This document shows, piece by piece, positions 2,441-50,176 of a stretch of 64,000 nucleotides of DNA. The stretch is from Microthyrium microscopicum. Its lineage: Eukaryota. The DNA is taken from the NCBI GenBank assembly GCA_010405405.1, contig MU004233.1:2334539-2398538 (forward strand). The letters are read 5' to 3'. How positions within the stretch are numbered: the stretch's first letter is position 1; each line of letters begins with the position of its first letter. Below the pieces are notes generated by a model that saw nothing but the letters and a program-made list of their open reading frames with translations, was not told the DNA's origin and made no database searches. The position numbers were made by a program, and so were the translations under genes.

Positions 2441-4061
2441 GACGGGCGAGTGCTTGTCTGGCTTTGTGGCGGAGAAGGTTGAATTGTCGTAATTGATCCA
2501 CGTTTGCTAGCACGTTGCCTTGCCAGAAAAGGAGAGGAAGTGAGGTGGGACCTCTGGAGGTTATCAGGTGGCGTGGTCTTTTGCTATCTCGGAGCCTTGG
2601 GGAGGAAGGCACGACGGGTAGTCGTAGACTCGCAGGGAAACAGCGATGGAGGAGTGCGCTCACTTCATCGGGCAATGCGAGGGGAGAGAAACTGCAGGCG
2701 CGATGCTCTTGAGGGAAGCAGCAACTGCGACGGGAGGAAGGAGCGATAGGGAGTCAAGGGGAGTAGACCTGGTAAGATGGCAACCACCATACATTATGCG
2801 TCGGAGGTGAGCATAAGAGTGTTTAAAGTGTACGGTACTGGCACACCCACATTAGGTGCTACTGTACAATCTCCAGCAACGCGGGTAGGCGGATTGGCGG
2901 GTTGGCGGACTCACTATTTCGCAGTGGGACTTGCAGCACTCTCACTGATTCTGCACCTCAAGCCACCCTGCATGAGCATGACGGTCGCCGGGGACGCCTC
3001 CAAAATCTACGACTCTCCTCCCGCCACCCAACTGTACTCCACCATAAACCTGGGTGAAGACGAGAGAGTGCATGCAAAGCCGGGAACAGCAAGGCTAGTA
3101 GTGGGTCGCTGCTATCTGATACGTTTCATTGGCCGTTGATCAGCTTCAGCCCTCTTATCCATGCTTCCAGAAGCCGCGGATGGAACTGGCCATCGCAGCT
3201 TATCGAACCGCTTCAATAGTTGCCATCTGTCCTGGTATCTGTACTACACACCAAGCAAATAAACAACTCTTCCTGGACTTTGCCCGGACGGCTCACCATA
3301 AAGCATCGCGACCAAGGCACGTCTACTCTTGCACAGTTACACCCTTCGGTCGTGTGCCAAATGCAGACATGCATCGCTGAAACCAACCTATCACTTGGTT
3401 CGCCTTACTGATATGCAATGCTCTAGGACTTGTGGGTAAAGAGCCGCATATCAAAATGCTGCATATCTTTACTTTTTTACCGTTTCTTTACCTTCCTTCC
3501 ATTTTGGATCTAAGACATGCACTCGTTATCATCCGCGCGTGTCTTCCTTCTCTTCTGCTTTTGTGCGACATATTTGTGTGTTTTTTGCACAAAGGTATTG
3601 CAAATGTCCGACCGCGGGATTCTTCTCCCTTTGGATCTCCTACTTTCCTGGTCTGCACGACTCGTGTGTGTATCAACTTCCACTTCTTCCAATCACATTG
3701 CCAAATTGCAGTGCATTTGTCCGCACACCGTTTGTCAGAATAACTGTGCAATTTTAGGAGTATCCTTGTCGTATTCGGGCCCCTGGTGCGGTATCAGCCT
3801 TTTAGCTGTGACAATATCCGTGGTGTACGGTCGTGCGGATTTCGTTGATGCCGAGATTGTGCTGGGTAAGTTGAGCAAAGAGCAGAGTTTCAATACCTTA
3901 GTGTCTTCATTACTATAGAAAAGACTGGTCTACTGACATTGACTACAAACTCCTTGCGTGGCCAGTGTTTGGAGCCAGACACAGTACGGCTACGAAATTG
4001 GGTGATTTCAATTCAGCAAATTTCCCCTGTTACCGGTACATAAACTTTGCTGATTGCAACA

Positions 4062-6094
4062 TCAAGCTACCTTACCAAGCGACCGCCATTGCTTGTTTTC
4101 CCAGTTCATATGATAGATCTCATAATCTCGCCCCTTGCAAAAGATATCGAGCCTCTTTTTAACTAGACATATCACCGTTGGGGCTGATATAAAATCTCCC
4201 CCAAGCTGCTCCCAATCACTCCACCATCCTCGCCAAGATTTGTGATGGAGTTGATTATCACTTCCTACACAGAAGAGGTCGAGCGAGTCGCCATCTTGAG
4301 ACACTACACAAGGACGACTGATGAACTTCCTTCCAAGGGACTCCCAGTCTCCCCAACTACAATTCCACCACCTGTGAATTACTTCACCGTCCGGACTGAG
4401 ACCAAATACATTAAAGTCTAGCAGTTGGCGCGATGCAGCAGCAAACGGCGTTATTGTTTGCGTGTTTCCCAAGTCCTCCCACTCAGCTCCTTCAGGAAAC
4501 CAAGCTCCGTCCAAAAACCATTTATACTGCAGTGTGTGAAGCGGTCCTCTCATGAACACGTCAATACGCCCAGAGTCACAGGATACCGCTTCTGGAGGAC
4601 CAATGACGCTACCGCCAAGACAATTCCACTCCTCCTTGGAAGGAAACCATTCTCCATGTTCGAACGTTTTATGATATAGCTGTTTATCCGCTCCCACGCC
4701 AAAGATATCGAGTCGAGCAAACCCAGGGGAGATTGCAGTGAGCGGGCTGACCATGCTACCTCCAAGATTCTGCCAGCTATCTTGTGAGAGCCAACCGTTT
4801 TGCTTAGCCAGATAATGCACTTCACCAGTGGTCGTTGGGGCGATTAGTTCGAATTGTGGCTCGCCTCTTGAAAATGCGATGGGCGCATTAGAGTAGGTGC
4901 CAGCTTCGGTTTGCCAGTAGCTTGGTAGCCAGCTTCCGTCTTCGATCTTCAAGTGTTTTATCTTGCGGTCACTTCCTAGGACCCAAACATCCACTCGATT
5001 GGGGGATGAATACGCGGCTGAGATGCGCGAATTGTGTAAAAGAGATACTGGCTGGAAGCTCGTTTGTCTCATGATCGTTGACGGGGCCTTTCCTCAAGTC
5101 AGTAATACGTACAACGACCTCAGGTCATGACATATACCTGTGCGAAACTTTGGTATTTAGAAGGGCCTACAGAGTCCCTGTTGTTCTCCTCAATCGCTTT
5201 ATGCAGCCTTGTTATTGCTTTGTTCAAACCTTCTCCATATATAAGAGGCATAAAAACGTCAAAAATTCCCATTGAGGAATATGCCATATCTTCTTCTCTA
5301 GTTGTCATGCGGCCATTCTGCCATGACAGCCGATCATTGACGCTGAATAGAGATAGATCCTGTGCCTGAAGGGCGTCTGGTGTCAAGTTTGTGATCTTAC
5401 TGATTGATTCCGCAAGCGATTCTTTATTGCCTAGTAGTTCACCTTCGCTAGAAAAGAATTCCACTGTTTCAGGGGCAAGTAATTCCTGGAGAGTCCAGCC
5501 TCTAGTGAACCATCTGCTGGACTCGAATTGCTGTTTCCAGGGAATGCCATTTGAGATTGTGACGTCTGTGAGGTAGACATAACATCTTTCCGCATCGCGA
5601 TACCAACGAAACATGGAATTGATTGCTTCTGACAGCTCCGCGCTACTTGACTTGTCGATTGCTATATTCAGTCAGCTCTAGATCGATCGCTCATATGTCT
5701 CCTTGAGCAGATCTGCACAAAATATTGCATCTCCAGAGAATTATCAGACTGCGTTTTTGAATGGAAGACGGCAGCATACACAGAGGGGTGGAGGTACTCA
5801 ATTTCCGTGAATTATAAATGCAGCTCTCACCTAATGAGAGGGATGTTAAAAAGACTTACCACAGGTGTCTATCCAAAAGTAGTCAAAGCCGTCTTTCGCT
5901 GCTTGTTTGGCACAGAACTCAATCTTTTTATAGCCTGTCTTACTCTTTCCAGCACCGTCAACTACATCGCGGAATGAGACTTCTTCACCAGCCGCTCCCC
6001 ATGTGAGAGAGAGTATGGCATAAGGCGGGATGTCACAGGCAAGGAACTCGGCTAGTGTCAACTCGCCTGTTTGTTCAAGCTTGAGAAGACGCAT
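4062..6094 (-). CDS. HET-domain (heterokaryon incompatibility) protein fused to a C-terminal 7-repeat lectin-like beta-propeller; exons 6094-5860, 5661-5138, 5087-4062 (~594 aa)
   Basis: HET motifs PPYAILSLTW, YFWIDTCAIDKSSSAELSEAINSMFRWY, SRWFTRGWTLQELLAP. Intron 5662-5859 (GTAAGT..GCTGAC..TAG). Intron 5088-5137 (GTATAT..TACTGAC..AAG) joins FAQ|APSTIM in frame to an ORF with seven W-x-x-LGG..P.(A/V)....(R/S)LD(I/L)F..G.D..L.H-type repeats. Confidence 0.8.
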
Positions 6095-7345
6095 TCTGAT
6101 AAGCGTTGTTCAAAAGACCTTTGGGAACTGTTGAAAGTTCGGACGTGATTCTCTTGGAGCTTTGATAAATCATGTCCACGATACTGACATTAAGGCTGAA
6201 TGATAAAAGTTAGCGCAAGACGAAGGCACCGTCAAATGAGTCTAGGTTGTACACCGGCCTCCGCTACGGTCATGCATATACCTATGCGAGGGGCAAAGCT
6301 CAGGTTTACTTGAAGTGTGGCTGATCTGATTATCAAGTCTCTGTGATAACTATTGGTTGCTGAATTGAGACGCAGCCTACAATATTCAATTACTGTACCT
6401 CGCAAGATAACCTGCATAATTCTAATCCTTTCCCAATCTGCCTGCCAGGTACTTCAACTTACTACCAGCTGTATTTATGCAACTCAGTTCTAGAGAAGCG
6501 CTTGATGCAGCAAGACAGATTTCTTCCTTCCATCAAGTACGATATTAACTTCACGTCGACTGGTTTTGGTTGATATTACTGGAGTTGAATATCACATTGA
6601 GAAGCACGTTGCCACCTAAATGCTTCAAAACAGACCATAAGAACCAGATAAGTTGTCCGTGAATTAACATAATATTGCATATTGTGAGAGAACAGAAAGC
6701 ACCTGAATCTTTCTCCATTGCCCAAGGTAACAAAGCTATCAGAGCCTTCGACACTTTCACAAATTGTTGTATTTGCGGAGCTGACATGAGGCAAATGTCA
6801 CGATTGAAGAATATATTTCCCTCTTGACCGACGACAGTGTATTCCATATGCCCCATATCCTACGCCATCATGATTTTCTTGGGTTCTGCCCCTGGATGCT
6901 GCCTGGAAGGCTTCTCTGAGTCGATACCACCTACTATGTGTAAGTGGAGCCTACACGCCGACTGACCTGCTGCTTAAGAGATCTAATCTGGCTGCCTGAC
7001 CAAATGGGATGCTATCTTACAATCCTGAGACCTGCTACTTCGATGGAGCTCCAGCGAATGCAAAGCACACTTCTCTGTAAGGCGCCAGTCAATGGGGCAG
7101 TTTAGATCACTGGATATCACACAGAAGTCAATCTTCCAGAAAGTGGGAACTCTCAGTCACATATAAACTGGACATTAGGTCAAGAAGTATCTTCATTCTG
7201 GTCGGGTGTCTCTTCTCACGCAGTGACCAAGAACTTCCTCATCACTCCAAACACCGCCTTCATAGAATTTCCATACCGGCCCCTGAGCCAGGACAATATA
7301 TTCATCGCTCAACTCTCACCAAATCAACCCACATCCACCAGCGCA

Positions 7346-8104
7346 ATGGCGGCTCATACAACGCTGACCGTCCAGATGCTCTCCTCTGGCTCTAGTACAT
7401 TCCTCCAAGCCATTACACCCATTACACTGGCCACTGGACCCACAGTACCAGCAACTACATTCCCAACCATGTCTGATTTCCCAACGATATCAGCCACACC
7501 AGACGAACCAACAATGACGACCTCCACAACATCAAGTTCCGTGTCTCCAAACCCATCCGCCTCAGAGCTACCAACCACACCAACAACGATAGAAGGACCT
7601 TCCGTAACAGTAATCCTCTTCTCCAACAGACCACCCCTAACAATAAACCGCTCCCTAACAGGTCCACCAGCACCAACACCAACACCATCAAACTCAACCG
7701 CCGCCACACCAACAACAATAGTAACAACCATATCCAACGGCGTCCCCATAACTCTAATCCTGACTCACTCCTCCGCCGGTCCAACCCGAACTCTCACCGT
7801 CGTCCAACCAAAAGTTCCAAGCCGCACACACACCGGTACAGATCCCGTCAGCACCATGACTGTCACTATGCCAAGTCCCACGATTGATAATCCGTATACG
7901 TCGATGACGTTGGGGACGTTGTTGTCGACTGATTATATGATTGATGCGCCGACGGGGGGCACGGTGACGTTTCCGTGTGCGGTGTATCCTGGATATACGG
8001 CGATGTGTGTGTCGGGTGGTGAGAGGGAACGGGTTCCTTGGACGGTTGGGTGGGTGGTGGGATTTTTTGGGACTGTGGTGGTGGTTCTTTGGGTGGTGCT
8101 GTGA
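7346..8104 (+). CDS. Thr/Pro/Ser-rich mucin-like protein with hydrophobic C-terminus (GPI- or tail-anchored)
   Basis: Open frame with extreme T/P/S bias and C-terminal VSGG..VPWTVGWVVGFFGTVVVVLWVVL. TATA-like CATATAAA near 7160. No clear signal peptide, so the start is uncertain. Confidence 0.6.
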   Translation: MAAHTTLTVQMLSSGSSTFLQAITPITLATGPTVPATTFPTMSDFPTISATPDEPTMTTSTTSSSVSPNPSASELPTTPTTIEGPSVTVILFSNRPPLTINRSLTGPPAPTPTPSNSTAATPTTIVTTISNGVPITLILTHSSAGPTRTLTVVQPKVPSRTHTGTDPVSTMTVTMPSPTIDNPYTSMTLGTLLSTDYMIDAPTGGTVTFPCAVYPGYTAMCVSGGERERVPWTVGWVVGFFGTVVVVLWVVL

Positions 8105-9458: not shown

Positions 9459-12400
9459 CTAAACAGGGGCCAATGGTCGAGGGCCTTGGTGAATGTGATT
9501 GTTGAGAGTTGCAAATAGCTTCTCGACTTCGGGGCTTGCTTTGACAAATGGCAATTCCCAGAATTGATAACCCGGGTTCTTGTAGAGTTCAAGCAAGACA
9601 ACGATTACGCCCCAAGGATGTGGACGGTGCACGTGTAGTCGTTCGATGAGGGTGCGCACAATCAACTCCATGAGACCTCCGTGTAGCTCGTCGGCAGATG
9701 ATGTGTTGACGCCGAATAGATCCATCAAGGCACACATGAACCAATGGGTGTGCGAGTTGGGGAATCGCAGTTGGTCGACCACTGCATTGACAAACAGATG
9801 GCGGTCATCCAAGTCAAGAGCCTGACCCAATTGCTGGAAGAGCTGAGCATGCGGAGATGACTTATTATATCCGTTAGCTAGCTCAAGAGCCTTGACGCCA
9901 GTGTGAAAGACAACGGCATTGATAATGGATCGATGATACGATTCGCCTTTGATGGTCGCTTTCTTGGGAGCTGACACACTTTCATGCAACAATTCGCAAA
10001 AGTTGGCAATGCCCTGTTGTGATGGTTGCGCATTTTCAAGAAGAGACTCGAGTGATTTCATCACGCCAGATTCATTGAGAATGTTGACATAGTCTTCTCG
10101 AAAAGCTGGGGCACTGAGCATCTCTTCGATGTGATCCAATTTCAAGCTTCCAGCAAAAGGATTGGGAAGTTCAGCCTGTTGAACCGGCACCGCGCTCAAT
10201 ACCAAGTTCTTGGCTTGGACAAAGTAGTCAGGTAGCCGGTTGAGCAGTGTTAGATGGTTGGAGCTGAAGAAATCCGGGAAGTCGTGATGAAGAATAACCA
10301 ACAGTCGTAAAACGCCGCGGTAAAAGTCTTGACCGCGTGCATATAGTTCTGGGTTACCCGATTCAGGAGCATTCATTAAACCGGTGGCCGTGTCAAATAC
10401 GATATGCAGAAGTTGAAGGTATTGGTCAGTCGACTTGCGGAGATTGGAAACCGTCATATCTTCATCCATGTCAGTGTTTACAATTGGATTTCTCATGCCC
10501 AGCATTGCCGGTATGAAGATGCGATGAGATATCAGACTAAGCCAAGCAAAAGCAAAACCTGGAAGGTAATTTGGTTGCATGGCCATGAAGCCTTGCGCCA
10601 CGGTAAGATATAGATCGCTTTGCTGAATATATGGCGAGTTCAAAGAGTGGATTTCCGAGAGCAGGCTGGAATAGAAGCGGAAGAAGATCTTTTGATTGGC
10701 AAGATCTTGTCGATGCTTCCAATGATCGCACTGGTAAAGGATCGCAACGCTAAGCATAGAATCAAAGAATGATATGCTGTCCAATTTGACTTCTCCATCG
10801 GTTTTCACACCATGATAGACAGTCAAAGCCACGATAAGCCCAGCAAGAGCATCGATGTGGATGTAAGCTTGGTCTACTGAACCACCATATGGTGTGGCCT
10901 CTTCTTGTTCGTATGCCATGATGGAGAGATCCAAGCACAGACGAATGAATACGGCGAGCTCTTCGGCGTTTTTGAGCACATCGCGATGGTGCAGTTGGTG
11001 GATGAAAGACGCAACAGTCTTGTCGGTTGCTTCCGGGCGACTTAGTTGAAGCCATTCCTCAAAGATATGCTCAATCTCATCTTGCTTGTTGGATGAGAGG
11101 GTTGCCATCTCATTGCTTGGTGTTGGAATTCGAAGTTTGTCAAACAATTCTTTACCAGCGTCAAGATTTGGATCTTCGTGGACCCACTGTGTCATAACCT
11201 CGAACGAGCTAGCAAAGTTCGCTCTTATCGCTAGCGGATGCTCGCTCAACAAAAGCTCATCAACGAATCGAGCCAGACACACAATGGCTATTTCATGCCG
11301 ATTACGAAGACCCTTGGCAATAATCGCATCTACTTTTCGCAAGTCCATCAGGCGGGCGTTGACAAGATGAATGGTGACTGGAGATGAAAGAATTCTGTCG
11401 TCCTCGAGTGAGGCAAGCCACAAAATGATTTGTCGGGCGGCATGCATGGAAAGCTGACAGAGATGAGCCAACACTTGGACGGCAACTTCGATCTCAAGTC
11501 GTCCTTCGGCCTCATCGTACATGGTAATTGGGAGGCGGCCTGCAATAAAGAGAGCAACCTGATCACGCTGGTTGCCAGAAGCATCAACAAGCTGGATGAG
11601 TTGATCGTAGAATTCTCGGACCGCGGAGTTTGGAGAAAGAAGCTTGATGCTGTCTTCAGGAGCGTCTCGAGCACTTCGAAAAAGCTCTACATACAAGGCT
11701 TCTATTCGTTCACCAAGAGAAGCAGGCTCGCTGTATCCATTGAGCTGAGGTTGTGGGGTTGAAATTCCTTGTGGGTTCATCATTCGAGAATTGGGAACTT
11801 GGCGCAGAACAGCTGGAGCTTCAGCCGGGGTTGGAATGGCAGACGTGAACTGTTCTTGAATCACATCTGGTGGCAATTGCTGTCTAGTATCCTGTCCTAG
11901 GCCCTGATGCGGCCCAGCGATATTGCGAGTGGCACCAAAGTTTTCATAGATTGCAAGCTGTTCGGGGCTCAGATTGCCGTAGCCTGAAGGCTTGAAAGGA
12001 TCTGGGATGGCATAGGCGTATTTTGAAGGCGGCGGGTAGGAGTATGGCTGATCAGGCTGTGCTTGCTGGTGCATTTGACGGAGTTGGATCGAATCACGAA
12101 TCTGATTTTCGATTTCGGCAACCGAGTACTTTTCAGCAGCCTCTTCGATGACCCGACAGACAACGTCAATATTATCGTTGACAAACATGAGAATCACGCC
12201 CTCAGGAAAACTATCCCCAGGAAGAGTGCGGGAGTTGTTGCGAACGTGATTGGTAATACTCATGCGGAGTGGCTCTCGACAAGTGACCATGGCCAAGCTA
12301 CCGGACAGCGACTTGACCATGTTCTGCGCTGCATCACGAAGTTGATCTTCACGAGATTCTGTGGCATAGTCTTTGGTAACCAGCTGCGACGCTGCTATGG

Positions 12401-15400
12401 CTGCTATCGTTACCGACCGCTCGACCACAGGATATATGATTTCGGTGATAGCTTGAGTAGCAGCTTGAGCAAAGACTTGATGAACTTGATCATCTGCGAG
12501 AATTGTGCTGGAGTTTGGTGGATACTGAAGACGTTGGCTAATGTCCGGCAGGTTTTCGGCAAGAGAAGCAGGAGAAAAGGATCCTCGATTGACTCGAGGG
12601 CGGGGAATCAAAGACATGTCGTGGAAGCCGTCAAGTCCTTCGGGAATACCCGTGCCAAACTCTCCGTGATCCGCGAGGGCCTCACTCTCTCGAATGACAG
12701 TGGCGGGTTCAGCCTTCTTCATGTCAAACTTCAATGCTCCACAGAGGGCTTCAATTTCAAACTTGAGGTTTATTCGAAGTTCGGAATATGTGTAAAGCTC
12801 GAGTAGCACTCGGAGAATCTCGACAGTCCACGGATTGGGTGGTTGGAAAATCTCACTCTTTGTGGCTTCCGCGAGTACCTTTGCCGTGAAAGGGATTGCG
12901 ATGGCTAATCGTTTGGTAGCATTGGCTTCAATAAGAAGATCCTTGAAGGAGAGGTTCTTGATCTTGATGGGAACGTCACGAGCCAGAGTTATGGAGCCTA
13001 GCCAGGAGCCTAGGCTTTTCAAGTGATTCTTTTCAGTCGCTGAGGTCATCGTAGCCTCCATATTGAGTAATCGAGCTACAGAGACATAAGTCTCTCGTAT
13101 GATCTCTTGCCATAAAAGGCTATCGTTGAACAAATCAATCAACCTAAGGTAAAGACCTTGGAAGTTCGACTGAAGTTTGGCACGTTCCTCAACGATATAC
13201 TCGGCAAACCATTGATGATGTTTCTGTTCGAGAACTTCCATGATTCCTGGTTGTTTTTCTTCAATATTGGCGGGAGAGACATTGTTGAGAATGAATAGTA
13301 TCTTGTCTTGAACATCTTCGGACGGGGCTTCATAGGTCGAGTCGTGAAGTGGAGGATCGGCATGGATACAGCTGAAGCCAAGCGATGGCACCTCTGCATA
13401 GTCTTCGCCATTGCCATTTGGGAGCAATTTCGGGCTTGTGACATGCTCTTCACCATCTGGTCGACCGTTGCGGACAACATCTTCTGCAATGATCCATACA
13501 TCAGTTTCCTGGAGTTCTTCGATCCTTAGTAGTCGTTCGCAGAAAGTGGGCCAGTCTGCTAGTCTGCTTTGAAATTGTTTCAGGGCTTGCAGGCCGAACT
13601 TATACAGCTTTTCTTCCCGTGACGCGCTTGATTGAATAGCCTCCAGAACCATTGCCAAGCCCACTTGAAGCGCAATTGACGATAAGAGATTGAAGTTGAT
13701 TATACCGCCAAATAGAACCGCAGTGGTGGATAGAGCATCGACTGGGTATTCGGCGAAACAATTATATTCGTCGAATAGACCATTGATCATGCACGCAAAG
13801 AGCTCCTGCTCTTGTGGGTTATCGGATTGCTTGAAGCGCTGCAAATACTCGATGACATCTCGAACTTTGCTGTCACCATTATACAGCTTCTTGAAATGTT
13901 CGTTCATGATTTGATCGGCTTGTGAAGACAATTGATGACCTTCTTTTCCGTTGGCCTCGATCACATCATCAAAGCCTTCGCCGTAATTTATCAGCCGGGG
14001 GTATGCGTTGATGCAGATCTTGAGGACGGCGACCAGAGACTCCTCAGGTAGATGAGGTTGGAGAAAGTTCAAGAAACCGAAGACAGTCTTTACAGATAAT
14101 TGAACGGTTCGCGGAGCAGTAGGATCTCGCTGCATGGCCAATTCGCTTCTAGCTTTGGCCTCTACAATGCGAGCTAGTCCAGTAGGGAAGGCAGCCGGTA
14201 TGGCGTTGTATTGTACGTCAAGCCAGGCTTCCAGATCCAGAGTCCCTTGAGAATGCGCTAAAGCGGCTAGATCAACACCAAACTCGTTGGAAATCGATGT
14301 TAGTGTTGGAATCCATCCGTGCTCATTGGCATGTTCGTAAATGAAATACAGATCTTGCGGGTTTTGTTGATACATTTCGATGAATTTAGAGGCAAGCCAG
14401 AGGTTGTTTTCGCGTTTCCATAGCCCATGAAAGACGAATTTGTCGCCTGGCAGGCGCTTTCGGAGAAATGGAGTGAAGAGTTGATTGAAGGCTTGCGACT
14501 GTAAAGAGCCCCAAGGACTGGGTACGGCACCAGTCGCGAGAACGAAATAGTCGGTGTGAGGATTAATGATGGTTTCGGGTATGCGCATCGAATTGGCTTT
14601 GGCGTATTTCTCAGGAGATTCGAAGATCATGCTGAAAAGCGCGGCGGTCGCATCGAGAGAAACAAAAGGGTGTCGTACTGCCAGTTCAGCATGTGCTTTC
14701 ACCTCGTCAGTCGCGTCCTCAAAGGTTTCGAGATCGTAGGCCTTGCGGAGCCGGGGTATAGTAGAAGCATCTAGCTCGTCAGTGCTACAGGATAGGAATG
14801 CGGCGACAAAGGATAATTGAGTCTCGGTGTTGAGCCATTCCCCGCCCCAGAGTAATTGAATATCGAAATTTTCATATTCTTGGCCAAGGGGTAGAAGAGC
14901 GTGGTAAAGAGCCAAGAATTGGCGCTTTGATATTCGCAAGTCTGGCCGGTCAAATGATCCAACAACATCTTGCCAATCTGTTCGCTTGCTAATTCGATGA
15001 TCCTTCAAGGTATTTAGGAAAGTTGTCGCGTCGTAAGTCATTCCTAGATCCTGACTCAGAACCATGTAGAGGAGTACGTTGGCGATATGGGTAATTGAGA
15101 CATCTCTAGTATCGATGTGGCTCAGCATTTCTTTGCAGCTTTCGAATGAGGCCGTGGCACTCGGACGAGACTTTTGAACGAGCTTCAATAGTAGGTTGGT
15201 TGTATCAAGAAGTGCGGAGAGCTGTAAGAGGTTCATGATTTCTGGTGGGACATCGGATTGAAGCTTATCAAAACGGGACCGAATGACGAAAACGAGATTG
15301 GCAGGGCTCTCTTCGGTCCAGTTTCGTGGCGGGTCATGGATGATATGTTCAAGGAGGGAGTATAGATAGGCGATTGGTAGGTCATCACCTGCTTCTGAAG

Positions 15401-16280
15401 TGGGGCTGGCGATGATCATCAAAAGGTGTTGATAATTATTTGCCAGTATGGCATCAGCTGCGAGGTGTTAGCATATTAAACAGTTGGGGATGAGCGTTGG
15501 GTACCCTTTGTCCGTAGGTCGGGTTTTGACGCGTTCTTGAGGGACAGCGCCAACATGCATTTAGCCACGGCATCCAACTTGAAATGTTCCATGAACTTTG
15601 AAACATCGAAATTCTTGAACAATTCGCCTTCGGTAGTATCAATGGACTCGGCAATTTTGTCTGCTTCATCGGGATCTATCCGTATCTTTTGAACATATCT
15701 CGTGAGGAGGTCATAGCTTCCTTGTGGTTGTGCGGCATTGTTGAAAATGTAGTCGGCATTGAGTTGGAGAATTCGACGGAAGAATTTAGGATACACGTCC
15801 ATGCCGTGCTGCGATATCATCTAGATGTAATTGTTAGAATATTGTTTTTGCGTGATGGATGGACATGTTTACGTCGGAGATTTGCTCAGCTTGTGATTCG
15901 CGCTTGACCGTGTCCTTTTCCTGATTGATGGTACCCAACAGTATAAAGATCTGAGTCAGAACCAATCTCGACAAGCCTGATGGATTGGCAGCAGAACTAG
16001 GAGAGGCAGTTTGTGATAGAGCGGGAGAGGCACGAGGTATTCGCGTCGAGCCCCCTCCGCCGCCAGTCGCACTAACACCTCCTTGTGAAGCGGTAGGCAG
16101 AGCTGCGGCGGCGGAGGCAGGAGGCTGCGAGCTCGCGGAGGACGCTATTCTGGCGCGAGATTGCAGCTGGCCCGATGAAGGCTGCTGCGAACTTTGCGGC
16201 GAAAAGGGTGAGGGATTGGTGGAGGATTGGGTGTGCGAAGCTGGCTCGGTATAGATTGGAGGCAGGCGTCGTGGTTGCAT
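9459..16280 (-). CDS. NOT1: CCR4-NOT scaffold subunit Not1 (Cdc39); exons 16280-15873, 15820-15505, 15457-9459 (~2240 aa)
   Basis: Conserved Not1 motifs QDKILFILNNVS, FQPPNPWT, PVVERSVTIA, PGFAFAWLSLISHR, LHHDFPDF, DQLRFPNSHTHWF, RPHPWG; two canonical introns restore the frame. Confidence 0.96.
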
Positions 16281-38299: not shown

Positions 38300-41200
38300 G
38301 TCGCCGAATTTAGTAATCAAGCGAAAGTGTCATGGAAAGGATTTACGGGAAGGATCATAGCATTGTGTGAGCGACTAACACTTTGCAAGCAAACGAAGGT
38401 GTAGAATCACTGAGTGATCAAAGATTAAGCATCGGTTCAGTAGAATCTCCAAGGCAAGGAGTCGGTCATTTCATATCGTCACTTTTGTTCTGATCTAAGC
38501 CATGTTTTCCACATGGCGCACTAGGGGTAATCGTACAAGTCTAATTCCATCGGAACCGGCACTTCCTTCCCGTCCTAGAATATTCTATCATCAGTCTTGT
38601 CTTGCGGTAGGCAACCAGACGACCAAGCGACATCCATCGCTTAGTTAAGCCATTTTGATAGCAGTTTGGGTTGGAGGCGTGGTAAACCCCTCAGAACGAG
38701 GCTTGAAGTTGGCGATACAAAAGGAGTACCTTCCCCAATACGGTTAGACCATTGAGCTAAACACCACGAGGCTGACAACGCGCCGCTCACACGCGACTTG
38801 AAATTTCCAATTCTTTTCAAAAGGAGAATTCCGGTCAAGTTTCAGAAGGGACTTGGTGTTTAAAGATCCAGTTAGGTACTTACATAATGGCGGAATCCAC
38901 ATTGTCAACATGTTTAACATATCACTATGGTATGATCCTCACATTTGCTGCCCCTTCAACTATTTTGTACAGGAGATGCTGATTCTCAACAGTTAACGGG
39001 TGTTGCGGAAGCTTGAGAAGTCTAAGAAGCACCGGAATCCGCATTACTTGAAGCATTTGCGGATACGGTAGTGTTTGTACATCAAGCACCTTACTTAGTT
39101 CATAGACTAGGGATAAGGCTTTTAAGAGTGGAATCGCTTGACTCGAAGATGATATCATACAGCAAAAAAGGATTCTCCTTGATTATCTTCATAATTGAGA
39201 TTTGATCCAAAATCATGATTCGGCTTCAATCTGGTGGTCATGGCCAAGATAGTATCATTCCAGCTGGAGTTGCTGAAGGCTGTACCCTGTGTACAGCAGT
39301 GTACTCAATACTCATCTTAGATTCTTAACAACCGGAAATTATTTGACGTCGATCCCTTCGTCTACAGTCGACACCGTGGCGCTTTTAGGTGCATCTCTGG
39401 ATCCACCGTCCCAATCCTAAAGCGGTTACCACCACCTAATTTTTGCAGGGTATAGCCGAAGGGCTATTATCTAAAGGGGCGTGATAATTATTCACATCTT
39501 TAAAGCATAAATTATTACATATAGGTTAAATTTAAGTATTAGTATTACTAAATCTACTACTGCTCCCTAATAACTCGTTTAAGATTAATATAATCCCCTT
39601 CTATTACTATAAGATTATTTAATTAGTTCTTATCCAAAATACTAATAAAATATATACTTACAATGCTTATAATACAATCTAAAACATTCATAACAAAGTA
39701 GGACGATATCTAGACATTTTATATAATAAAATCTAATAGTTAAAATATATCTTTTAGGTTAACCATTTGCCTTTAGCTAACGGTAAAAGAAGCATATTCC
39801 TCTTCTACTATTGCTAAAGAGCATTATAATATGCTTACTAGCTGCGAGTTATATTATAGGAAGCTTACTACCTAAATAAGCAATTATCTAAGATCTATAA
39901 CTTTTAAAGTAGTATTTTACCTTTTCGTAAGCCTATACTATTAAATACTTTATATATTCGATTCCTTTATCTTTAATAATACCTAAAACACATAAATTCT
40001 AGGCCAAAATAGTACGGAATTGCCTTACATTTAATAGATGTCATTAAAAGTAGTTTTTATTAGCTCTAGCGTAGTATAGTTGCATGTCCTATTAAACCTC
40101 TAGAGCTAAGATATACGCATTTCTAACGGTTGCATTAAGGTTAAAAAAGAATAGAGGGAACTACGTTTAATAGCCTAAAATAAAGATGTATTAGTACAGA
40201 ATTTTAAGAGCTTTCGAATAGTACTATTTTTAAGAAAAAATATTAAGAATTAACTTCTATAAAAACTCTAGCGGCGTTCTCTTACTTTAGTAGTAGACTA
40301 TATAATAAGCTTGCTACTAGTTCGTAATATTAATACCGCCTATAAATAAATTATAATCTATAGCTACGGTAGGCTATTTAAGATATTTATAAGAATATAA
40401 AGAATAGTTTAAAGTAAGGGAAATAGATTCTAAGAACTAGTATTAAAATAAGACTAATACTTAATCTCTCTAGAGATTAAGTTTATTCCTTTACTTATAC
40501 TCTTCTCTATCTTCTTTTTAGTAAGGCTACCTCTTTTTCTTATTCTTAGCTCTATTTAGCTTTATTTTATTATAGTAAAGAATAGATACTATCTATATTA
40601 ATTTAGTAGTTTACTAATAAAAAGCTTTTCTATAGCATATTATAAAAGTAAAGAAAGTAAAAAGGTAATAAAATACTTACACCTTTATAGTAAGTTTATA
40701 AGAGTCTATAATAAAGCTTCTTTTTCTAAAGAAAGTTACTTTTAATAACTTAGCTATTATATCTTTTTTTTTTAGTAAGTATAGTCTTAATTTATAATAT
40801 TCTTATCTTTAAAGTTACTATAATATTTATTATATAAGTAATAATAACTCTATTTATTATAAGAGTATTATATATATATATAATACTAAAATATTTTAGA
40901 ACTATAATACTTTATCTTCTTAATACTATAACTTTTTCTTTTTATAAGTAATTTATAAGTATATTATTTACTTAAAATCTTAAAAGTTTTAAAAACTATA
41001 TTTTTTTAGAGTCCTTAATTTAACTTATATTCTTTTTATATTCTATTTATACTCTTTTTACTTATCTTTAATACTTTTAGCTTTTTAATATATATTCTAA
41101 TAGTATTTTAATTATTCTTCTATAATATCTTTTTATTATTATTCTAGTAGTTTATATAGTAATAGTTTATCCTATTAAGACTTTATTAACGTTAATTTCT

Positions 41201-44200
41201 TTAGTAATAATAATTTTATTAATAATAATAATTTATAAAAGAGTAAGTAGTTAGTTAATCTTAACTTAAGTAATTATTCTTTAAGAATATATTATACTTT
41301 TTAAAAGTTTTAATAGTCTTAATAGTAAAGTAGCTAACCTTTTAAGTATATAACTTACTAATATTCTATTACTCTTTATACTTTATAGAGTTCTTAGTAT
41401 ACTTTTAAGAAGCTTAAGTTATATAATTATAACTTAATTTAACTTACTAATTAGATAGCCTTCTTAGAGCCTTAAGGAAGCTTATTAACTCCTTATATCT
41501 TATTACTCTTAGGCTATATTATTACTAATACTAATTTACTATTTATTTCTTATTTAGCTTAACGTAGTATAGATAGCTTTATTTACCCTATTTAAATACT
41601 TATTAGTACTATAATAGTTAACTTAATTACTAAATTTACTCTATAGCTAGCCTATACTTCTTAAGCTAATAAAAAATATTATTATAAGAATACTCTATTA
41701 CTAAAGCCTTTATAGCTACCTATTACTTATTTTATAATTAAAAAGTAAACTACTTATTAAAGTACTTCTATACTACTTTATATATTATCTCTAAAGAATA
41801 AAGAGTCTAAGTTAAATAACTTACTTAATAAGCTAAAAGATATAGACTTAGGTTTTATAGCCTAAACTACTTAGTAGTAAGCCTTTATAGTAAATATATT
41901 ATAAGTAACTTACCTAATTCTTTTACTAACTTATACTTTTATAAAATATTACTTAAATTATATCTTATTCTTAAGCTATATTTATTCTACTTTTTTTTTT
42001 ATATTATTTCTAATATTTATAAAATATTATTAATAATATAGTTTACTATTATTTTAATAGTAGCTATATTTTATAGAGTACTATATATAGTTATAAAGAT
42101 AACTTTACTAAATACTATTACTATACCTATTAAAAGTATTATTATAATATTATAAGTATTTTATTAATAATTTAGATATAGCTTACATACTAACCTCTAT
42201 TTAAGTATCTATAGTCTTTAATAAAGTTATAAATAACTTAATCTACTTATATATCTATTTTATATTTCTTAACTTTATAAGTTCTATTATAGTTATTATA
42301 CTTTTAGGTTCCTTTATTAAGTTTTATTAATATAGTAATATATATTATATTTATAATAAAGAGTTAATACGTTATTAATAAGCTTATAATACTTTTATTA
42401 TAGCTTAGTATTATATAGAGAGTTACCTAAGAGGCTATAGCTATTTTATAGCTTTAGATATAATATTCTATATTTATATTATACTTAGTTATATTAAAAA
42501 TATATTAAAATAAGCTAATAATATTTAGTATCTTAATATAGGTTCTCTTACGTTTTATCTATAAGTTATACTTTTATTAACTATTATTTTTAGAATTATC
42601 TTCTACTTATATTCTATACTTAGTTATAAGTTTAAGTACTTATCTAGCTTATAAGAATCTACTTAGAAGGCTTTAAATTACTTAATTCTTATTAAGAGCT
42701 AAGTCTTACTACTAATAACTTTTTATTATCTTTACTTATTAGTAGTTTATTTATATAAAGTAATTATCTTTATATCTATTTTTTATTTTCTTTAGTCTAA
42801 AATAGAGAAAATATTACTATATTTAGGACTTATATACTTCTTAAATTTATTTTAGATATTAATACCTTATACTTTATAGTATATTTATTTATTATAGAAA
42901 AGATTAAGGATAAGAAAGTAGGTAGTATATAAACTAAGTAGTCTAATAAAGAGACTATACTACTCTTTTATAGCTCTTTTCTAGCTACTTAGGCTTAGGC
43001 TTAATATATTAATAAAATAGCTTACTCTTTTTATTAATTTTAGTAGTATTATATTATTAATAAAGTAACTATTTACTATAACCTAGATAGTAATATTAAT
43101 TCTATTAGTACTAATTCTAACTATTTTTATTCTTTTTCTATACTTATAGTATCTATAACTTATAATATTCTTTTATTTATTTACTTATCTACTAATAGCG
43201 TACTAATTACTTTAACTATATTTATTATATACTTCTTTTTTAGTAATCTTAAAGTAATTAATAGTATCTAATACTTACTTTTAAAGTTATAGTATCTTAA
43301 TATATAGAATTAGGATCTAGTAATTAGATTACGTTTTAATTATATAAATATTATATTTATTTATTTCTTTAGGTATAAGTTACTAGTCTTAATATCTTTT
43401 AGGATTAGCTTTTTTATTAACTTATTATTTATAGTTATAATATTTAGAAAAAATTCTTATTTTTTATTATATTTACTAGTAGTTTATTTTTTCTATCTTT
43501 ATAAAAAAGAGTCTTTTTTTTATAGTATTAGTTTATTAGTTTCTTATAAGACTTTTTAATTTTATTTAAGTTTTATTTATATCTTACTAGTAGTTTACTT
43601 AGCTATAATTTTTACTATTTTTATTTTTAGTTTTCTATTTTTTATTTTATTAGTTAATTACTTTTCTATAGTAAATAAAAAGCGTATAAAAATCTTCTTT
43701 TTCTTATAACGCCTTTTTTTATAGTTTTATTCTTCTTTTTTTCTTTTTTTTATAATAGTAAACTTAAGTCTACTAGCTTCTTTAAAAACCTTAATTAAGT
43801 CTTATACGTTTTTATAGTTTTTTTCTTATTTCTAAGAATTATAGGTTAAAAAATAGCTTTATTAATAAATAAAGTATTTAACTTTCTTTTTCTATTTCCT
43901 TTTATTTAAGATAGTTCTTATTTCTTATTCTTTTTTATTTTTTAGCTTAATAGCTATAAAGAGCTTTAGTTCTTCTTAACTTTCTCTTTAATAATATAGT
44001 TTAAGTTTAAATATATAAAAAATATTATAGATTTAGTAGCTTATTAAAAGGTTTAGTTAGTAAGCTTATTCTCTAACTATATCTTAAATACTAAATAGTT
44101 TTATATAGTAAAAGGCTAGCTTCTTACTTAATAGTTTAAGTTTAATATTCTCTATTAATAGTAAGACCTTATTTTTTATATAGAATAATATTAGAATATA

Positions 44201-47200
44201 CTTTTTATTATAGAACTTAGCTTAGTATTTTATTACTTTTTCTTAGCATTTTATTATCTTTTCTTAATCTTATTCTATTTTTATTACTCTTTACTTTACT
44301 ACTATTATCTTACTTCTCTTTTTTTTAAGCTTATTTTTAGAGTCTATAAAGAAATTTACTAAAAAAGTTAGTTTATATTTTATTTTAGCTATATTTAAAG
44401 TATAGTTAAGTATCTTATTATAAGACGTATTTATTACTTATTATACTATAAGTAGAAGGCTTAATTAATTTATTTAGTTTTTAGTAGTAAAGGCTTATAA
44501 ATAATATCTTAGTACTAAGTTTTATTACTTAGTTTAGCTATTAGTTTATAGATATTAAGCTATAGATAGCTTATATTTTACTTTTCTTACTTAGTATAGT
44601 TTAGTCTAAAATTTATTTATAAAGATAAATTCTTTATTTAATATAATACTTATTAGTAAGCTTTTTTTTAAGAAAATTCTTTTTTCTATAAGTTTTACTA
44701 ACTCTTTAATAATTATATCTTTTATAATTTTAATATATCTTATTTATTTAGTATATTAATTTATAATTACTAGTATAGTATTCAATATTATAAATTTATA
44801 TTTATAAAGTAGTAAACTTATAATAAAGTTTATAATAATTTCTTATTATAATTAAATTAGTTAAGGTAGAGACTTTAACTTACTATAAAGTTAATATTAT
44901 TTTACTTTTATTCTTTAATAAACTAGGTAAGTTTTTATATATATCTATATATTCTTTTTTATCTTTAGCTAGTAAAATTATTTATAAAGTAGTTTTATAA
45001 TACCTTAAACCCTTAAGTATTTTATTAATAGATTATTATAATATATTACTAAGAGTTTATTTCTTAAGATAAGCTTATAAAGTATATATAGTTAGCTTTT
45101 ATAGTAAAGATAGTTTCTTTAAATTAACTAAGTATTTTTTAGTTATTAAGTTTTTTTAAACTCTAGCTATATATTAAGTACTTTTTAAATATACTTAAAT
45201 TCTTTATTACTATCTTAAGTAACTTAAACTAAGATAATTAGTATATTTAAAGCTTCTTTATTTATAATATATAAATTTTATATTACTTCTCTTACTATAG
45301 TTTTTAGAATATAAATATAGTTTAAAATAGTAACTACTTTTTAAAAGCTAAAAGAGTCTTTACTCTCTTTATTTATAATATCTTAGCTACTTATTTACTT
45401 ATAAAGTATCTTACTTATTCTTAATATATTTAATACTAAGTAGTACTTAATATTAAATATCTTATTTATAAGGTTATACTTATTTATTATTAGTATTTTA
45501 TTAGTAAGTTACTTTATTAATTTAAGATTATTTATAAAGACTAACTTTTTTTATTCTTTTTCTAAAAAAAGTCTTAACTTTTTCTAAAAAGTAGATAGTA
45601 AGTTATTTATAGCTTATTCTATAGTAGTATAGTTAAGTTATCTTAATAGTATATTTATAGAATTTATTTTTTTACTTTAATACCTAATATAGAAGTTATA
45701 CTTTATTAATATAATTACCTAGTATACTTAGTATCTATTTAAGTTCTTTTATTTTATAAACTTTATTAAATTATTATAGTTAGTTAAAATCTTAATAAAG
45801 TAGTAACTATTCTTAAAATAATATTATTAATATTTTATAGCTTTAATAATAATAAGAAGCTTTTAGTTATAGATTTAATAGTTAATTTTAGCCTTTATTA
45901 ATTTTCTTAATTAAAAAGTAATAAAATACTATTAGCTATTTTTTTATAACTAAGAAAAAATACTTATAATAATATATTAAAATATATTAGTTTTAAGGTA
46001 AATTCTCTTCTCTAAGTTAAAATATATAAAAATAAAAATTTTATTAAAAACTATATAGAGTATATAAAATACTTATACTACTTTCTTTATTTAAATAAAA
46101 GGTTTATATTTCTTTTTAAGTTATATATTCTTAAATAAGTTAATTAAGAGTTTTATTATTTTTAAGTAGCCTTTAATAAACTTATAATAAAAATTTATAA
46201 AGCTAATAAATACTTATATATTATTATAGCTTTTAAGCTTTAGCTATTTTATAATAGACTTAACTTAATTAAGATTTATTTTTACTTTTTTTATAAAGAC
46301 TATAAAACTAAGAAATTTTACCTTATTAGTAAAGAATTAGTATTTTTTAGGATTAGTATAAAGCTTAATAGCTAGTAAGTATTTTAATATAGTATATATA
46401 TTATAAATATAATTCTTATATATTTTAGAAAAAATAAGAATATTATTAAAGTAGATAATATAAATAATATCTAAGAATTTTATTAATACTTTATAAATAT
46501 AGGCTTAGAATATAGTTAAAGTATTAGTAAGTTTAAAAAATATAACTTAATATTTATAGTATTTATATTAAATATAGAATATTATCTTTTATTAATCTTA
46601 TTCTCTAATAAATATCTAAGTATAGATATTCTTAAAATTTATTTTAGTATAGTATATTACTTTATTAAGTTAATTTAATATTTTACTTATTAAAGAAAGT
46701 AAATAATAGTTCTTAATAGTAACTATATTAAGTAAGTAGTAGTTTATATAAAGTTATAATTCTTTATTCTTCTTAAATATAAAAAGTATAAATACTTTAG
46801 CTAAGCTAGTTAATTCCTAAATCTAGCCTTTTATAAAAGCTAATTTAAAGTATTTTTATAGTACTTTAAGTTTTATTACTAATAAATTATAAATAAGTTT
46901 AAAAAAAGGGTTTATAGTTATTTTAATAATATATTTAATATCTTTAGAGATAGGTTTACTCTTATCTTTAGCTTTAACTTAAGAAACTAAATCCTATAGC
47001 TTTTATAATAGTCTATTCTTTAAATTAATATTTACTTATAAGCTTAGCTTAAAGCTAATACTAGAAATTTTTATTTTTCTACTATTTAAGTATAAATACT
47101 TATTAAATTTTATAATTAGTTTAAATACTTTACTATATTTTTATAGCTTTTTTTTAAATATACTCTAGTTTATAATCTTATATTTTAGCTTCTTTTTCCT

Positions 47201-50176
47201 AAATAGCTACTTCTTTTATTTTAAATAAATAAAGATATTATATTTTTCTTATAGAGAAGTTCTTTATATTATAGAGTAAGTATATTTAGTTTAATTAAAA
47301 GAAAAAAAATAGTATTTAATATCTTTATAAATACTAGAAGAGTCTTTATAATAAAAATATAGTTAATATATATTATAATATTTACTTTTTATTATATTAT
47401 TAATAAAACTTATAGCTTAAATACTTTCTATAGTTACTTTTTTAAAGCTATAATATTATATAAGTTATTTATTAATAATATTAATTTAACTATTAGTATT
47501 TAAAAGAATATTTATAAATTAGTTTTCTATAATAAAAGGAAGGTTAGCTATTATCTAAATCTATATTTCTATAATTTAATTTAGTATTATAAAGATAAGA
47601 TTCTTAACTTTTATAATACTTACTTTTTTTTTAGATTAATTCTAGATTCTAATAAGAAGAAGATAATATTTAAGTTTTTTCTTTAGTCTTTATATTTTAA
47701 AAAACTTTCTTACCTTTAAGTAGCTTAAGAGCTTCTTAAAGGCTTATTATACTTATTTATATAATATTTAAATAAGTTATAATTATAATAAATAATTCCT
47801 TTATATATTTTACTATTTTTTCTAGGCTTTATACTTACTAGTAGGTAAGTTAATAGTATATATTTTATATAACTTTTATATTTTTATTATTTACCTTAGC
47901 TACTTTATAGATTATAATTTAATTATAAGAATTAAGAATTAATATTACTTAATAAGTCTTTTTATAAGTACTTATAAATAATTTACTAAAAGTATTTAGT
48001 AGCGTTAATTATATTTAGTCTAATAGTTAGAATATATTTTATTAATTTAATTTATTTTTATAGTTTTAGGGTTAGCTTAGTAAAGAATTTTAAGTATTAT
48101 TTATCTCTTTTATAAGTTATATTAATATTAAGTTAGGTCTTTAATAAGTTTAAGTAAATATTAAACTTTATAAAAGTCTAAGTAGAATACTACTTAGCTT
48201 TTTTAAGTTTTTTAATAACTAAAAATTTAGCTATAATAGAGTAAGTATATTAATATTAAAGCTATTTTATAAACTTTTCTTAAGTCTAAGTTAATAGCTT
48301 AATTTTCTTTTTCTTTAGGTTTTATTAAGTTTATAAGTTAGGACTTATAAATTAGCTAATCTATTTAATATAGTTTTCTTATATAGTAAATTAAAAAAGT
48401 ACTAAATAAAAAATATTTTTTATACTTATAGTCTAGTTAATAAGTTCTTATTAAGTCTTATATTAAAGAACTATAAGGTTAGTAGGTTTTAGTTCTTTTA
48501 GTTAAAAAGAAGAAAAAGGATTTTATTAAGAGGCTTATAATAAGGCTATAATTTTATTATAAAGCTATTACGTTTTAGCTACGTATATTTATTTTTATTT
48601 ATTAATTTAAGCTATTACTATATAAAAGATAGCTAAAGTAGCTTCTAAGTCTATTAGTAGTAATAGGCTATTATATTAACTTAAGTTATTATTTAAGTTA
48701 TTATCTAAGTTATTATCTAAGTCTTTATTTTTATCTTTATCTTTATTTTAGCCTTTATTAGAGTTTTTTATATTTCTTATTATTATAAGAATTTATTAAA
48801 CTTATTACTATATAGTATATATATAAAAAATAGTTTAAAGTAAGAGAAATAAATTCTAAGAATTAGTATTAAGATAAGACTAATACTTAATCTTCTAAGA
48901 GATTAAATCTATTTCTTTACTTATACTCCTCTTTATTTCTTTTTTAGTAAGGCTATCTCTTTTTCTTATTCTTAGCTCTATTTTAGCTTTATTTTATTAT
49001 AATAAAAAGTAAGTACTATCTATATTAATTTAGTAGTTTATTAATAAAAAGCCTTTCTATAGCGTATTATAAGAGTAAAGTAAGTAAAAAGATAGTAAGA
49101 TATCTATGCCTTTATAATAAGTTTATAAAAGTTTATAATAAAGCTTTCTTTTTTAAAGAAAGTTACTTTTAACGACTTAACTATTATATTTTTCTCTTTT
49201 AATAGGTATAGTCTTAACTTATAGTATTCTTATCTTTAGAGTTACTATAATACTTATTATATAAATAATAATAATTCTATTTATTATAATAGTATTATAT
49301 ATATATATAATACTAAATATTTTAGAACTATAATACTTTATTTTCTTAATACTATAATCTTTTCTTTTTATAAGTAATTTATAAGTATATTACCTACCTA
49401 AAATCTTAAAAGTTTTTAAAACTATATCTTTTTAAAGTTCTTAATTTAACTTATATTTTTTTTATACTCTATTTATACTTTCTTTACTTATTTCTAATAT
49501 TTTTAATTTTTTAATATATATTTTAATAGTGTTTTAATTATTTTTTTATAATATCTTTTTATTATTATTTTAGTAGTTTATATAGTAATAGTTTATTCTA
49601 TTAAGACTTTATTAATATTAATTTCTTTAATAATAACAACTTTATTAATAATAATAATTTATAAAAGAGTAAGTAGTTAGTTAATCTTAACTTAAGTAAT
49701 TATTCTTTAGAAATATATTATATCTTTTAAGAGTTTTAATAATCTTAATAATATAATAGCTAACTTTTTAAGTATATAACTTACTAACGTTTTACTACTC
49801 CTTATACTCTATAAAGTCCTTAATATATCCTTAAGAGGCTTAAATTATATAATTATAACTTAGTCTAACTTATTAACTAAGTAGCCCTTTTAGAGTCTTA
49901 AGGAGGCTTATTAACTCCTTATATCTTATTACCCTTAGGCTATATTATTACTAGTACTAATTTACTATTTATTTCTTATTTAGCCTAATATAGTATTAAT
50001 AGCTTTTATTACTTACTCTAAGTATTTCTTAGTACTACTATAATTAACTTAATTACTAATTTTATTTTATAGTTAACCTATACTTTATACGTCTTTTAAG
50101 CTAATAGAAAATATTATTATAAGGATACTCTATTATTAAAGCTTTTATAACTACCTACTACTTATTCTATAATTAA

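Follow-up and report, generated by a model that had tools for sequence, protein, structure and literature searches.

A spliced gene of Microthyrium microscopicum that joins a HET domain to a PLL-type seven-bladed beta-propeller

In a 64,000-nucleotide stretch of the genome of Microthyrium microscopicum (GenBank assembly GCA_010405405.1, contig MU004233.1, positions 2,334,539 to 2,398,538 of the forward strand; hereafter the window) we have found a single expressed, spliced gene of ascomycete type that encodes a HET domain followed by a seven-bladed beta-propeller of the PLL type. The gene lies on the minus strand (6094 to 4062), and its coding sequence (CDS) of 1785 nucleotides (nt), made of three exons joined in one frame, gives a protein of 594 amino acids (aa) plus the stop codon. 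An initial annotation of this DNA had read three open reading frames (ORFs) as pieces of one protein of about that length joined across two introns, and the CDS, together with a sequenced contig that carries both joints, bears this out. We read the product as a cytosolic HET death protein that is not a NOD-like receptor (NLR) and in which the propeller is the ligand-recognition module; the probability that we give to this reading is roughly 0.55. Few domains of filamentous fungi are as abundant as HET or as poorly understood, and in most HET proteins the C-terminal part is of unknown fold. The C-terminal part described here comes from a family of lectins whose structures have been studied in detail and for which pockets and assays are known. 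Since the protein is also short and has two domains, it lends itself well to the question of what is recognised by a HET protein outside the NLRs and whether ligand binding suffices to activate it.

The HET domain and the propeller on one spliced message

The gene model rests on contigs from two public sequencing runs, X1 and X2, which we only guess to be RNA; 82% of the words sampled from the stretch are present in X1. The X1 contig (2599 letters, depth 186, 0 mismatches) lies on 6156-5860, 5661-5137 and 5086-3900 of the window and leaves out two segments, of 198 and of 50 bases, whose ends read CT..AC on the plus strand, i.e., GT..AG on the gene strand (with the cut of intron 2 at +1). Because the joined form itself is seen in this contig, both introns are precisely removed and the HET and propeller parts stand in frame on one message. 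The 213-letter contig from the second run, X2, also has the 198-nt joint and is identical to the window.

The message opens with a 5' untranslated part (6095..6156, on the minus strand like all features of the gene), since the X1 contig reaches 6156, and the start codon at 6094 is the first in-frame ATG past the stop at 6112-6110. Exon 1 (5860..6094) encodes residues 1-78 and the first base of codon 79, and contains the beginning of the HET domain with its ILSLTWG and FWIDTC blocks. Intron 1 (5662..5859; 198 nt, GTAAGT...GCTGAC...TAG, phase 1) is skipped exactly in the contigs of both runs. Exon 2 (5138..5661, residues 79-253) completes the HET domain, which reaches about residue 245 (~5162), and carries the motifs AIDKSSSAELSEAINSM and SRWFTRGWTLQELLAP and the start of the linker. 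Intron 2 (5088..5137), which falls between the HET domain and the propeller, has the 50 nt, the GTATAT donor, the TACTGAC branch, the AAG acceptor and the phase 0 that had been predicted for it, and the X1 contig skips exactly this segment. Exon 3 (4062..5087, residues 254-594) holds the rest of the linker and the entire propeller, and ends with the TGA stop at 4064-4062. The donor of intron 2 lacks the usual G at +5, though it is used. Two other ways of splicing this intron were rejected. Use of the AG at 5094-5093 as acceptor would lead to a stop, and a donor shifted downstream by 6 nt would be a poor GTCATG and make the intron 44 nt long; neither has contig support. The 3' untranslated part extends at least over 3900..4061, the X1 contig being unbroken over 3900-5086 and having about 590 letters more. 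Some 750 nt of the spliced contig lie past the stop codon (~3310-4061, minus strand), which could be a long fungal 3' untranslated region or some further message structure.

By sequence comparison, the first 245 or so residues make up an intact HET domain (Pfam PF06985) of the kind that also heads HET-NACHT NLRs, as the initial annotation had proposed. After splicing, the HET region shares 57.7% identity over 246 aa with a HET domain from a metagenome (E 4e-105, local comparison), and it keeps 40 of the 42 columns that are invariant among 38 related HET sequences. Three conserved blocks of the HET domain are ILSxTWG, WIDxxCIDK and W-x-RGWTLQE. Scanned as separate exon pieces, the domain scored 13.7 bits on exon 1 (Pfam HET profile positions 1-54) and 20.5 bits on exon 2 (profile positions 127-146), each below the cut-off of 22.5 because the intron splits the domain; P0036, one of four fused relatives discussed below, clears the cut-off with 39.7 bits, and the alignment with all four is gapless across the junction of exons 1 and 2. 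Among the structural neighbours of another fused relative, P0165, in the ESM Atlas are HET/NACHT clusters and one that bears the name of HET-E-1 (feature scores up to 0.83, to be taken as leads only).

The further statement that HET domains are usually carried on NLRs does not agree with the literature, in which most HET genes are non-NLR (PMC10890737; PMC10197012). Of the 132 genes with a HET domain in Podospora anserina just four count as het genes, and there is no NLR among the Neurospora HET proteins TOL, PIN-C, HET-6 and HET-e (PMC10890737; PMC10197012). Downstream of the closest metagenomic HET domains, a regular expression for the Walker A motif was matched within 2.4 kb in 19 of the 61 loci with at least 1.5 kb of downstream sequence, the other 19 of the 80 listed loci being too short; this screen ignores introns and gives a crude hint. 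It may thus be that proteins other than NLRs carry many of the HET domains of this NLR-heading type.

Nothing else was recognised by Pfam over the three exons apart from HET and DUF346, with no NACHT or NB-ARC among the matches, and the linker from the HET domain to the first blade has only about 23 residues, in line with the earlier claim that a nucleotide-binding domain is missing. The same holds for the predicted lack of a signal peptide: judged by hydropathy only, the protein has neither a hydrophobic N-terminus nor a transmembrane segment, the highest 19-residue Kyte-Doolittle mean being 1.35. When the HET part (residues 1-250) and the propeller part (290-640) of P0036 were submitted to a complex prediction without alignment, it gave no verdict (score 0.00).

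Fold and sugar-binding positions of the propeller

The C-terminal half (4071..5045, minus strand, residues ~268-592) is truly homologous to the PLL/PHL lectins of bacteria (DUF346 / Beta-prop_PLL) and forms a seven-bladed propeller. The blade alignment places the repeat units at 4899-5045, 4758-4898, 4611-4757, 4464-4610, 4329-4463, 4197-4328 and 4071-4196, all on the minus strand. The seven Trp-rich repeats that had been described are all there with their core strings; the units measure 42-49 aa, end in W-x-x-[LE]-[GA]-x and are 17-39% identical to one another. Pfam DUF346 matches the propeller with an E-value of 1.3e-12, and the only matches of phmmer against PDB sequences are Photorhabdus lectins (eight distinct sequences, E-values from 3e-39 to 6e-28), among them PHL (3.2e-39), PLL2 (1.8e-36) and PLL (4e-28). 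An AlphaFold2 (AF2) model of the propeller from a 29-sequence alignment has 28 strands, with pLDDT 89.8 and pTM 0.88. Searched with Foldseek, the best 18 rows listed were all PLL-family chains (PLL, PLL2-5, PHL) with template-modelling (TM) scores of 0.82-0.84, and the six-bladed AAL-type fucose lectins reached only about 0.55. The likeness to Photorhabdus PLL-type propellers noted at the outset is therefore confirmed by sequence (3e-39) and by the modelled structure. LectomeXplore classes DUF346 as a PLL-like lectin (PMC7778903), and a survey of fungal lectins lists its fungal homologues as undescribed (PMC10481521).

With the PLL family (PLL, PLL2-5, PHL; PropLec7A; PF03984/PF26607) this propeller shares the seven blades, the Trp-rich repeats of about 47 aa and the Trp at the end of the unit, which is kept in all seven. 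However, the family members are stand-alone bacterial proteins of about 370 aa, whereas here the fold makes up the C-terminal half of a eukaryotic HET protein, with an identity to them of about 25%, and the residues that contact the sugar also differ. We mapped the sugar-site positions by hand, from a HMMER alignment to PHL, the blade alignment and the residues named in the literature (PMC5584973, PMC12203525). The fucose site of PHL is made by the backbone of Val172, Thr194, Trp199 and Trp214 (PMC5584973). Both stacking Trp have been called essential for fucose in PLL lectins (PMC12203525, 2025), and in PLL3 the loss of a stacking Trp is taken to disable a site (PMC6943638). At the position of Trp199 the seven units have, in order, K, H, Y, Q, I, H and Y, so that this first Trp of the fucose site is replaced in all of them, while the position of Trp214 is Trp in 7/7. 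The position of Thr194 reads S, T, A, P, P, S and R (Thr in one unit and Ser in two). For the polar site we used Arg91/Glu93/Gln155/Trp107/Trp163 of PHL; its Arg-x-Glu appears as Arg-x-Asp in four of the seven units and as Gln-x-Glu in one, and its Gln position reads I, K, F, F, W, W and E, without a single Gln, leaving no unit with the complete Arg/Glu/Gln set. The sugar-site positions are variable among eight clade members too. The proposal of glycan sensing in the initial annotation is thus not borne out by the residues of the binding sites, the first stacking Trp and the polar set both being found in 0/7 units. A Tyr or His at the first stacking position could still stack a sugar, yet sequence alone gives no argument for fucose or O-methyl-sugar recognition of the PLL kind.

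Relatives and rarity of the fused architecture

The HET-propeller architecture is real, rare and conserved in at least two lineages. A word search from the propeller of P0036 returned four proteins with both parts among the 120 listed, namely P0036 itself, P0165, P0167 and P0168. The suggestion to look for such architectures was therefore productive, giving four further proteins, one of them from Cladophialophora chaetospira (Chaetothyriales; P0165, KAJ9615047.1 / UniRef100_A0AA38XKA2); P0036, P0167 and P0168 are metagenomic. In the databases all four are named only "hypothetical" or "heterokaryon incompatibility domain-containing". They have 637-652 aa, and the five fused proteins, including the one described here, are colinear over their full length. 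The relatives have longer linkers (the difference being roughly 40-60 residues of total length) and insertions in the loops of blades 5/6, and all the fused proteins have clade-specific motifs in common, e.g., FCKG-D-EIY-M in the last blade. Identity of the protein in the window to its four relatives is 53-56% in the HET domain and 36-40% in the propeller, and the propeller was the less conserved part in 10 of the 10 pairs that can be formed among the five. A propeller that diverges faster than the HET domain is what would be expected of a recognition module.

Some database entries contain the propeller alone. P0008, P0027 and P0166 share the clade motifs and, judging from their sequences, look like truncated gene calls. 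P0007 (336 aa) is a database gene call that starts at the internal Met of exon 3 and comprises only the propeller.

The propeller family as a whole is large, with 7663 representatives at E<=1e-3. We scanned with Pfam 96 of the best 150 representatives (44 at E<=1e-5, 52 at E<=1e-8), and found a peptidase domain in 14 of these 96 and HET in one; in the other 54 of the 150 only HET was looked for, by phmmer with the N-terminus of P0036. Run locally against 164 proteins, the HET part of P0036 matched P0036 alone. The combination of HET and propeller amounts to one in 150 representatives. From the opposite side, a metagenome scan seeded by the alignment of the fused proteins gave 80 HET loci among the matches listed, and a PLL-type propeller was found in none of the 80 (tblastn, E<=1e-3); the listed loci match query residues 1 to about 276, as the scan was seeded on HET motifs only. 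The ESM Atlas search from P0165 gave no cluster of at least 50 members combining HET and Beta-prop_PLL.

According to precomputed Pfam annotation, the PLL-type propeller is also found on Ser/Thr kinases, amidases and GH18 proteins. Elsewhere, then, the propeller is an accessory module, of peptidases among others, which fits a binding or sensor role of the fold. The bacterial Ser/Thr protein kinases with a PLL-type propeller (P0223, P0229, P0231, P0274 and P0278) are a second pairing of this fold with a signalling domain.

Recognition, rival explanations and genomic surroundings

The closest known system is het-B of Podospora anserina. This gene encodes BH (Bh1/Bh2), which consists of a HET domain, a HET-associated domain (HAD) and a C-terminal fruit-body-lectin fold that sets the recognition specificity toward the PII-like protein BP (PMC10890737). 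According to the same source, a BH-like arrangement is found in 13 of 132 Podospora HET proteins, and the HET domain of BH is about 45% identical to those of the NLRs HET-D, E and R. [quoted passage not shown] However, the lectin fold of BH is an actinoporin-like beta-sandwich and that of our protein a propeller; the C-terminal halves are not sequence relatives; the HAD of BH takes up about 140 aa between the two domains, whereas the linker of about 23 aa leaves no room for one; and BH is paired with an adjacent PII-like gene, while none was seen beside the HET-propeller gene. In the literature that we searched no paper describes the combination of HET with a PLL propeller, which exists unnamed in public protein databases. 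The earlier suggestion that the architecture is uncharacterised therefore stands for this particular combination, but not for the wider one of HET with a lectin fold, which is known from het-B (PMC10890737). A HET protein in which NACHT is absent and a lectin fold serves for recognition is thus of an already known kind, and what is new are the PLL propeller fold, the direct junction without HAD and the absence, as far as seen, of a linked partner. The theme of HET plus lectin fold, first shown for het-B, is extended to a second, unrelated lectin fold, which suggests that lectin scaffolds have been repeatedly recruited as recognition modules in fungal cell-death proteins.

The HNWD NLRs (HET-E, HET-D, HET-R; domain order HET-NACHT-WD40) have the same kind of HET domain and likewise end in a beta-propeller. 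They differ in having a NACHT/NTPase domain, of which there is none here, and a propeller of the WD40 rather than the PLL family. Their WD repeats are highly similar to one another (PMC12881547), in contrast with the old blades of our protein and their 17-39% identity. HET has been held to be remotely homologous to TIR, and both domains head NLRs (PMC10890737; PMC10197012). The HET domain exceeds the TIR NADases (SARM1, TIRs of plant TNLs, ThsB/SpbK of bacteria) in length by about 100 residues, and the literature reports NADase activity for no HET domain (PMC10890737, PMC10197012).

Under the reading that we prefer, of a cytosolic non-NLR HET death protein with the propeller as its recognition module, the propeller would bind its ligand, this binding would bring HET domains together or release them, and the HET domain would then execute regulated cell death. 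We infer the cell-death activity, the sensor role and the activation by clustering by analogy, the scheme being the same as would apply to HET-NLRs and to BH according to the proposals made for them (PMC10890737). From the literature, other HET domains are known to induce regulated cell death in fungal cells (PMC12881547, PMC10197012). The ligand might be a glycan bound in a non-canonical way or a protein, as proposed for BH; both are tentative and we consider them about equally likely, each below even odds, with the remainder going to something else or to no sensing role. A more specific version, in which this single chain is a NOD-less receptor whose propeller senses cytosolic glycans through remodelled Tyr/His/Trp pockets and directly licenses a TIR-like HET domain, is in our view unlikely; such glycans might be either foreign or the fungus's own, laid bare by damage.

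Several observations weigh against the death-protein reading. The sequence does not imply a lectin-type ligand, since the canonical sugar sites of PLL are not preserved in it. The rapidly diversifying WD40 repeats of HET-NLRs are said to be marked by strong conservation from repeat to repeat (PMC12881547), which is missing here, as the blades are only 17-39% identical, and no PII-like, NLR or second HET gene was seen nearby. Two of the invariant HET columns are changed, His30 (of ILSHTWG) to Leu and Leu216 to Ser. How HET domains are triggered and how they kill are open questions (PMC10890737; PMC10197012). We examined the relation to TIR on an AF2 model of a proxy HET domain (L013, pLDDT 91.8) and not of this protein itself; Foldseek found no match for it in the PDB at E<=0.001, and the best Z of VIA-align was 4.7 (rmsd 3.8 A over 102 residues), below the level at which the tool is trusted. 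About 19 of the 50 VIA-align rows listed were TIR chains, SARM1, SpbK, MyD88 and ThsB among them, all of them weak matches, and most of the others were nucleoside 2-deoxyribosyltransferases and SEFIR domains. The fold search with this modelled proxy is consistent with the TIR kinship of the literature without proving it. With respect to His30, codon 30 (window 6020-6000) is CTC, Leu, and the contig agrees with the window; the change may alter the function of the death domain.

Among the rival explanations, a glycan sensor in the strict sense would bind multivalent foreign fucosylated or O-methylated glycans in its inter-blade pockets, which would cluster the protein and activate HET without a nucleotide-binding domain. 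The homology of the propeller to lectins that bind L-fucose and O-methylated sugars between their blades argues for it, as do the classification of DUF346 among the PLL-like lectins (PMC7778903), the second stacking Trp in 7/7 units, the Tyr or His at the first position in 4/7 and the frequent attachment of the family to secreted hydrolases in the manner of carbohydrate-binding modules. Yet one of the two Trp called essential for fucose (PMC12203525) is lost in every unit, the Thr that hydrogen-bonds fucose is Thr in one of seven and Ser in two, and the polar sites have Arg-x-Asp in four and Gln in none, at positions that vary across the eight clade members. Moreover, the sole characterised HET protein with a lectin fold recognises a protein (PMC10890737), and there is no known route here for foreign glycans into the cytosol, all of which leaves the strict sensor on the doubtful side. 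It seems improbable to us that this is an allorecognition (het) gene like het-B, tol or pin-c, whose propeller would recognise a polymorphic protein of an unlike strain after hyphal fusion and whose HET domain would kill the heterokaryotic cell. The idea has precedents, since HET proteins outside the NLRs act as incompatibility determinants in Neurospora, Cryphonectria and Podospora (PMC10890737; PMC10197012) and the C-terminal lectin fold of BH sets specificity (PMC10890737), and the propeller outpaces the HET domain in divergence in 10/10 pairs. However, no linked partner gene was seen, the 213 letters from the only second run are identical to the window, and the gene is located between conserved housekeeping genes.

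That there is no fusion at all, the HET domain and the propeller being made separately or the locus being a decaying pseudogene, is already largely refuted and retains next to no credence. The database gene caller did predict the propeller alone (P0007, 336 aa), as in the other propeller-only predictions P0008, P0027 and P0166, and the GTATAT donor of intron 2 is without the usual +5 G. However, the contig joins exons 2 and 3 in frame, the frame is open over 594 codons, and the four homologues are annotated as single colinear proteins of 637-652 aa; P0166 opens with linker-like sequence, as a truncated call would, and only 55 nt separate the stop reached through a retained intron 2, at 5122-5120, from the internal Met. 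The protein could also be thought of as a chimerolectin toxin against fungivores, in which the propeller would bind gut glycans of an ingesting nematode or insect and deliver a TIR-like HET domain. Cytoplasmic lectin toxins of fungi such as MOA, CCL2 and tectonin 2 provide the analogy. The lack of a signal-like N-terminus would agree with it, fruit-body lectins are known to defend against micropredators (PMC10890737), and among the targets of fungal lectins are O-methylated nematode glycans (PMC6943638). Nevertheless, with the canonical sugar sites lost and HET described as acting inside fungal cells only (PMC12881547, PMC10197012), we regard this as highly improbable.

The consequences would differ with the ligand of the death protein that we prefer. 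If that ligand is a glycan, the protein would represent a novel type of immune sensor inside the cell, and if it is a protein, one more example of the logic of het-B. Should the NOD-less glycan receptor be true, the pattern-recognition receptors of fungi would gain a new class, with the first defined ligand class for any HET protein.

The HET-propeller gene lies in DNA of normal GC content (47-51%). It has an amino-acid permease gene on one side and, on the other, a divergent Ser/Thr/Pro-rich ORF followed by Not1. No Pfam family was detected in nine small flanking ORFs, a search that intron-bearing genes could escape, and there is no second copy of the HET or propeller domain within the 64-kb window. 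The Ser/Thr/Pro-rich ORF (7106-8104, plus strand, 332 aa), about 1 kb from the start of the gene, has a hydrophobic C-terminal stretch and no Pfam family, and may be a mucin-like membrane or wall protein. Not1, the scaffold of CCR4-Not, is encoded by an uninterrupted ORF of 2002 aa (9459-15467, minus strand) with all the expected domains. Farther away, at 39000-59000, there is an AT-rich block with a GC content of 10-25%, compared with 47-54% elsewhere, without long real ORFs and open in all six frames only at 50151-50980 and 54671-55418; it looks like an AT isochore or a repeat region degraded by repeat-induced point mutation (RIP). Pieces resembling an aspartyl protease, with weak matches to Pfam Asp, are spread over three consecutive ORFs at 60220-62329 (plus strand); the split could be due to introns or to the decay of a gene beside the AT-rich block.

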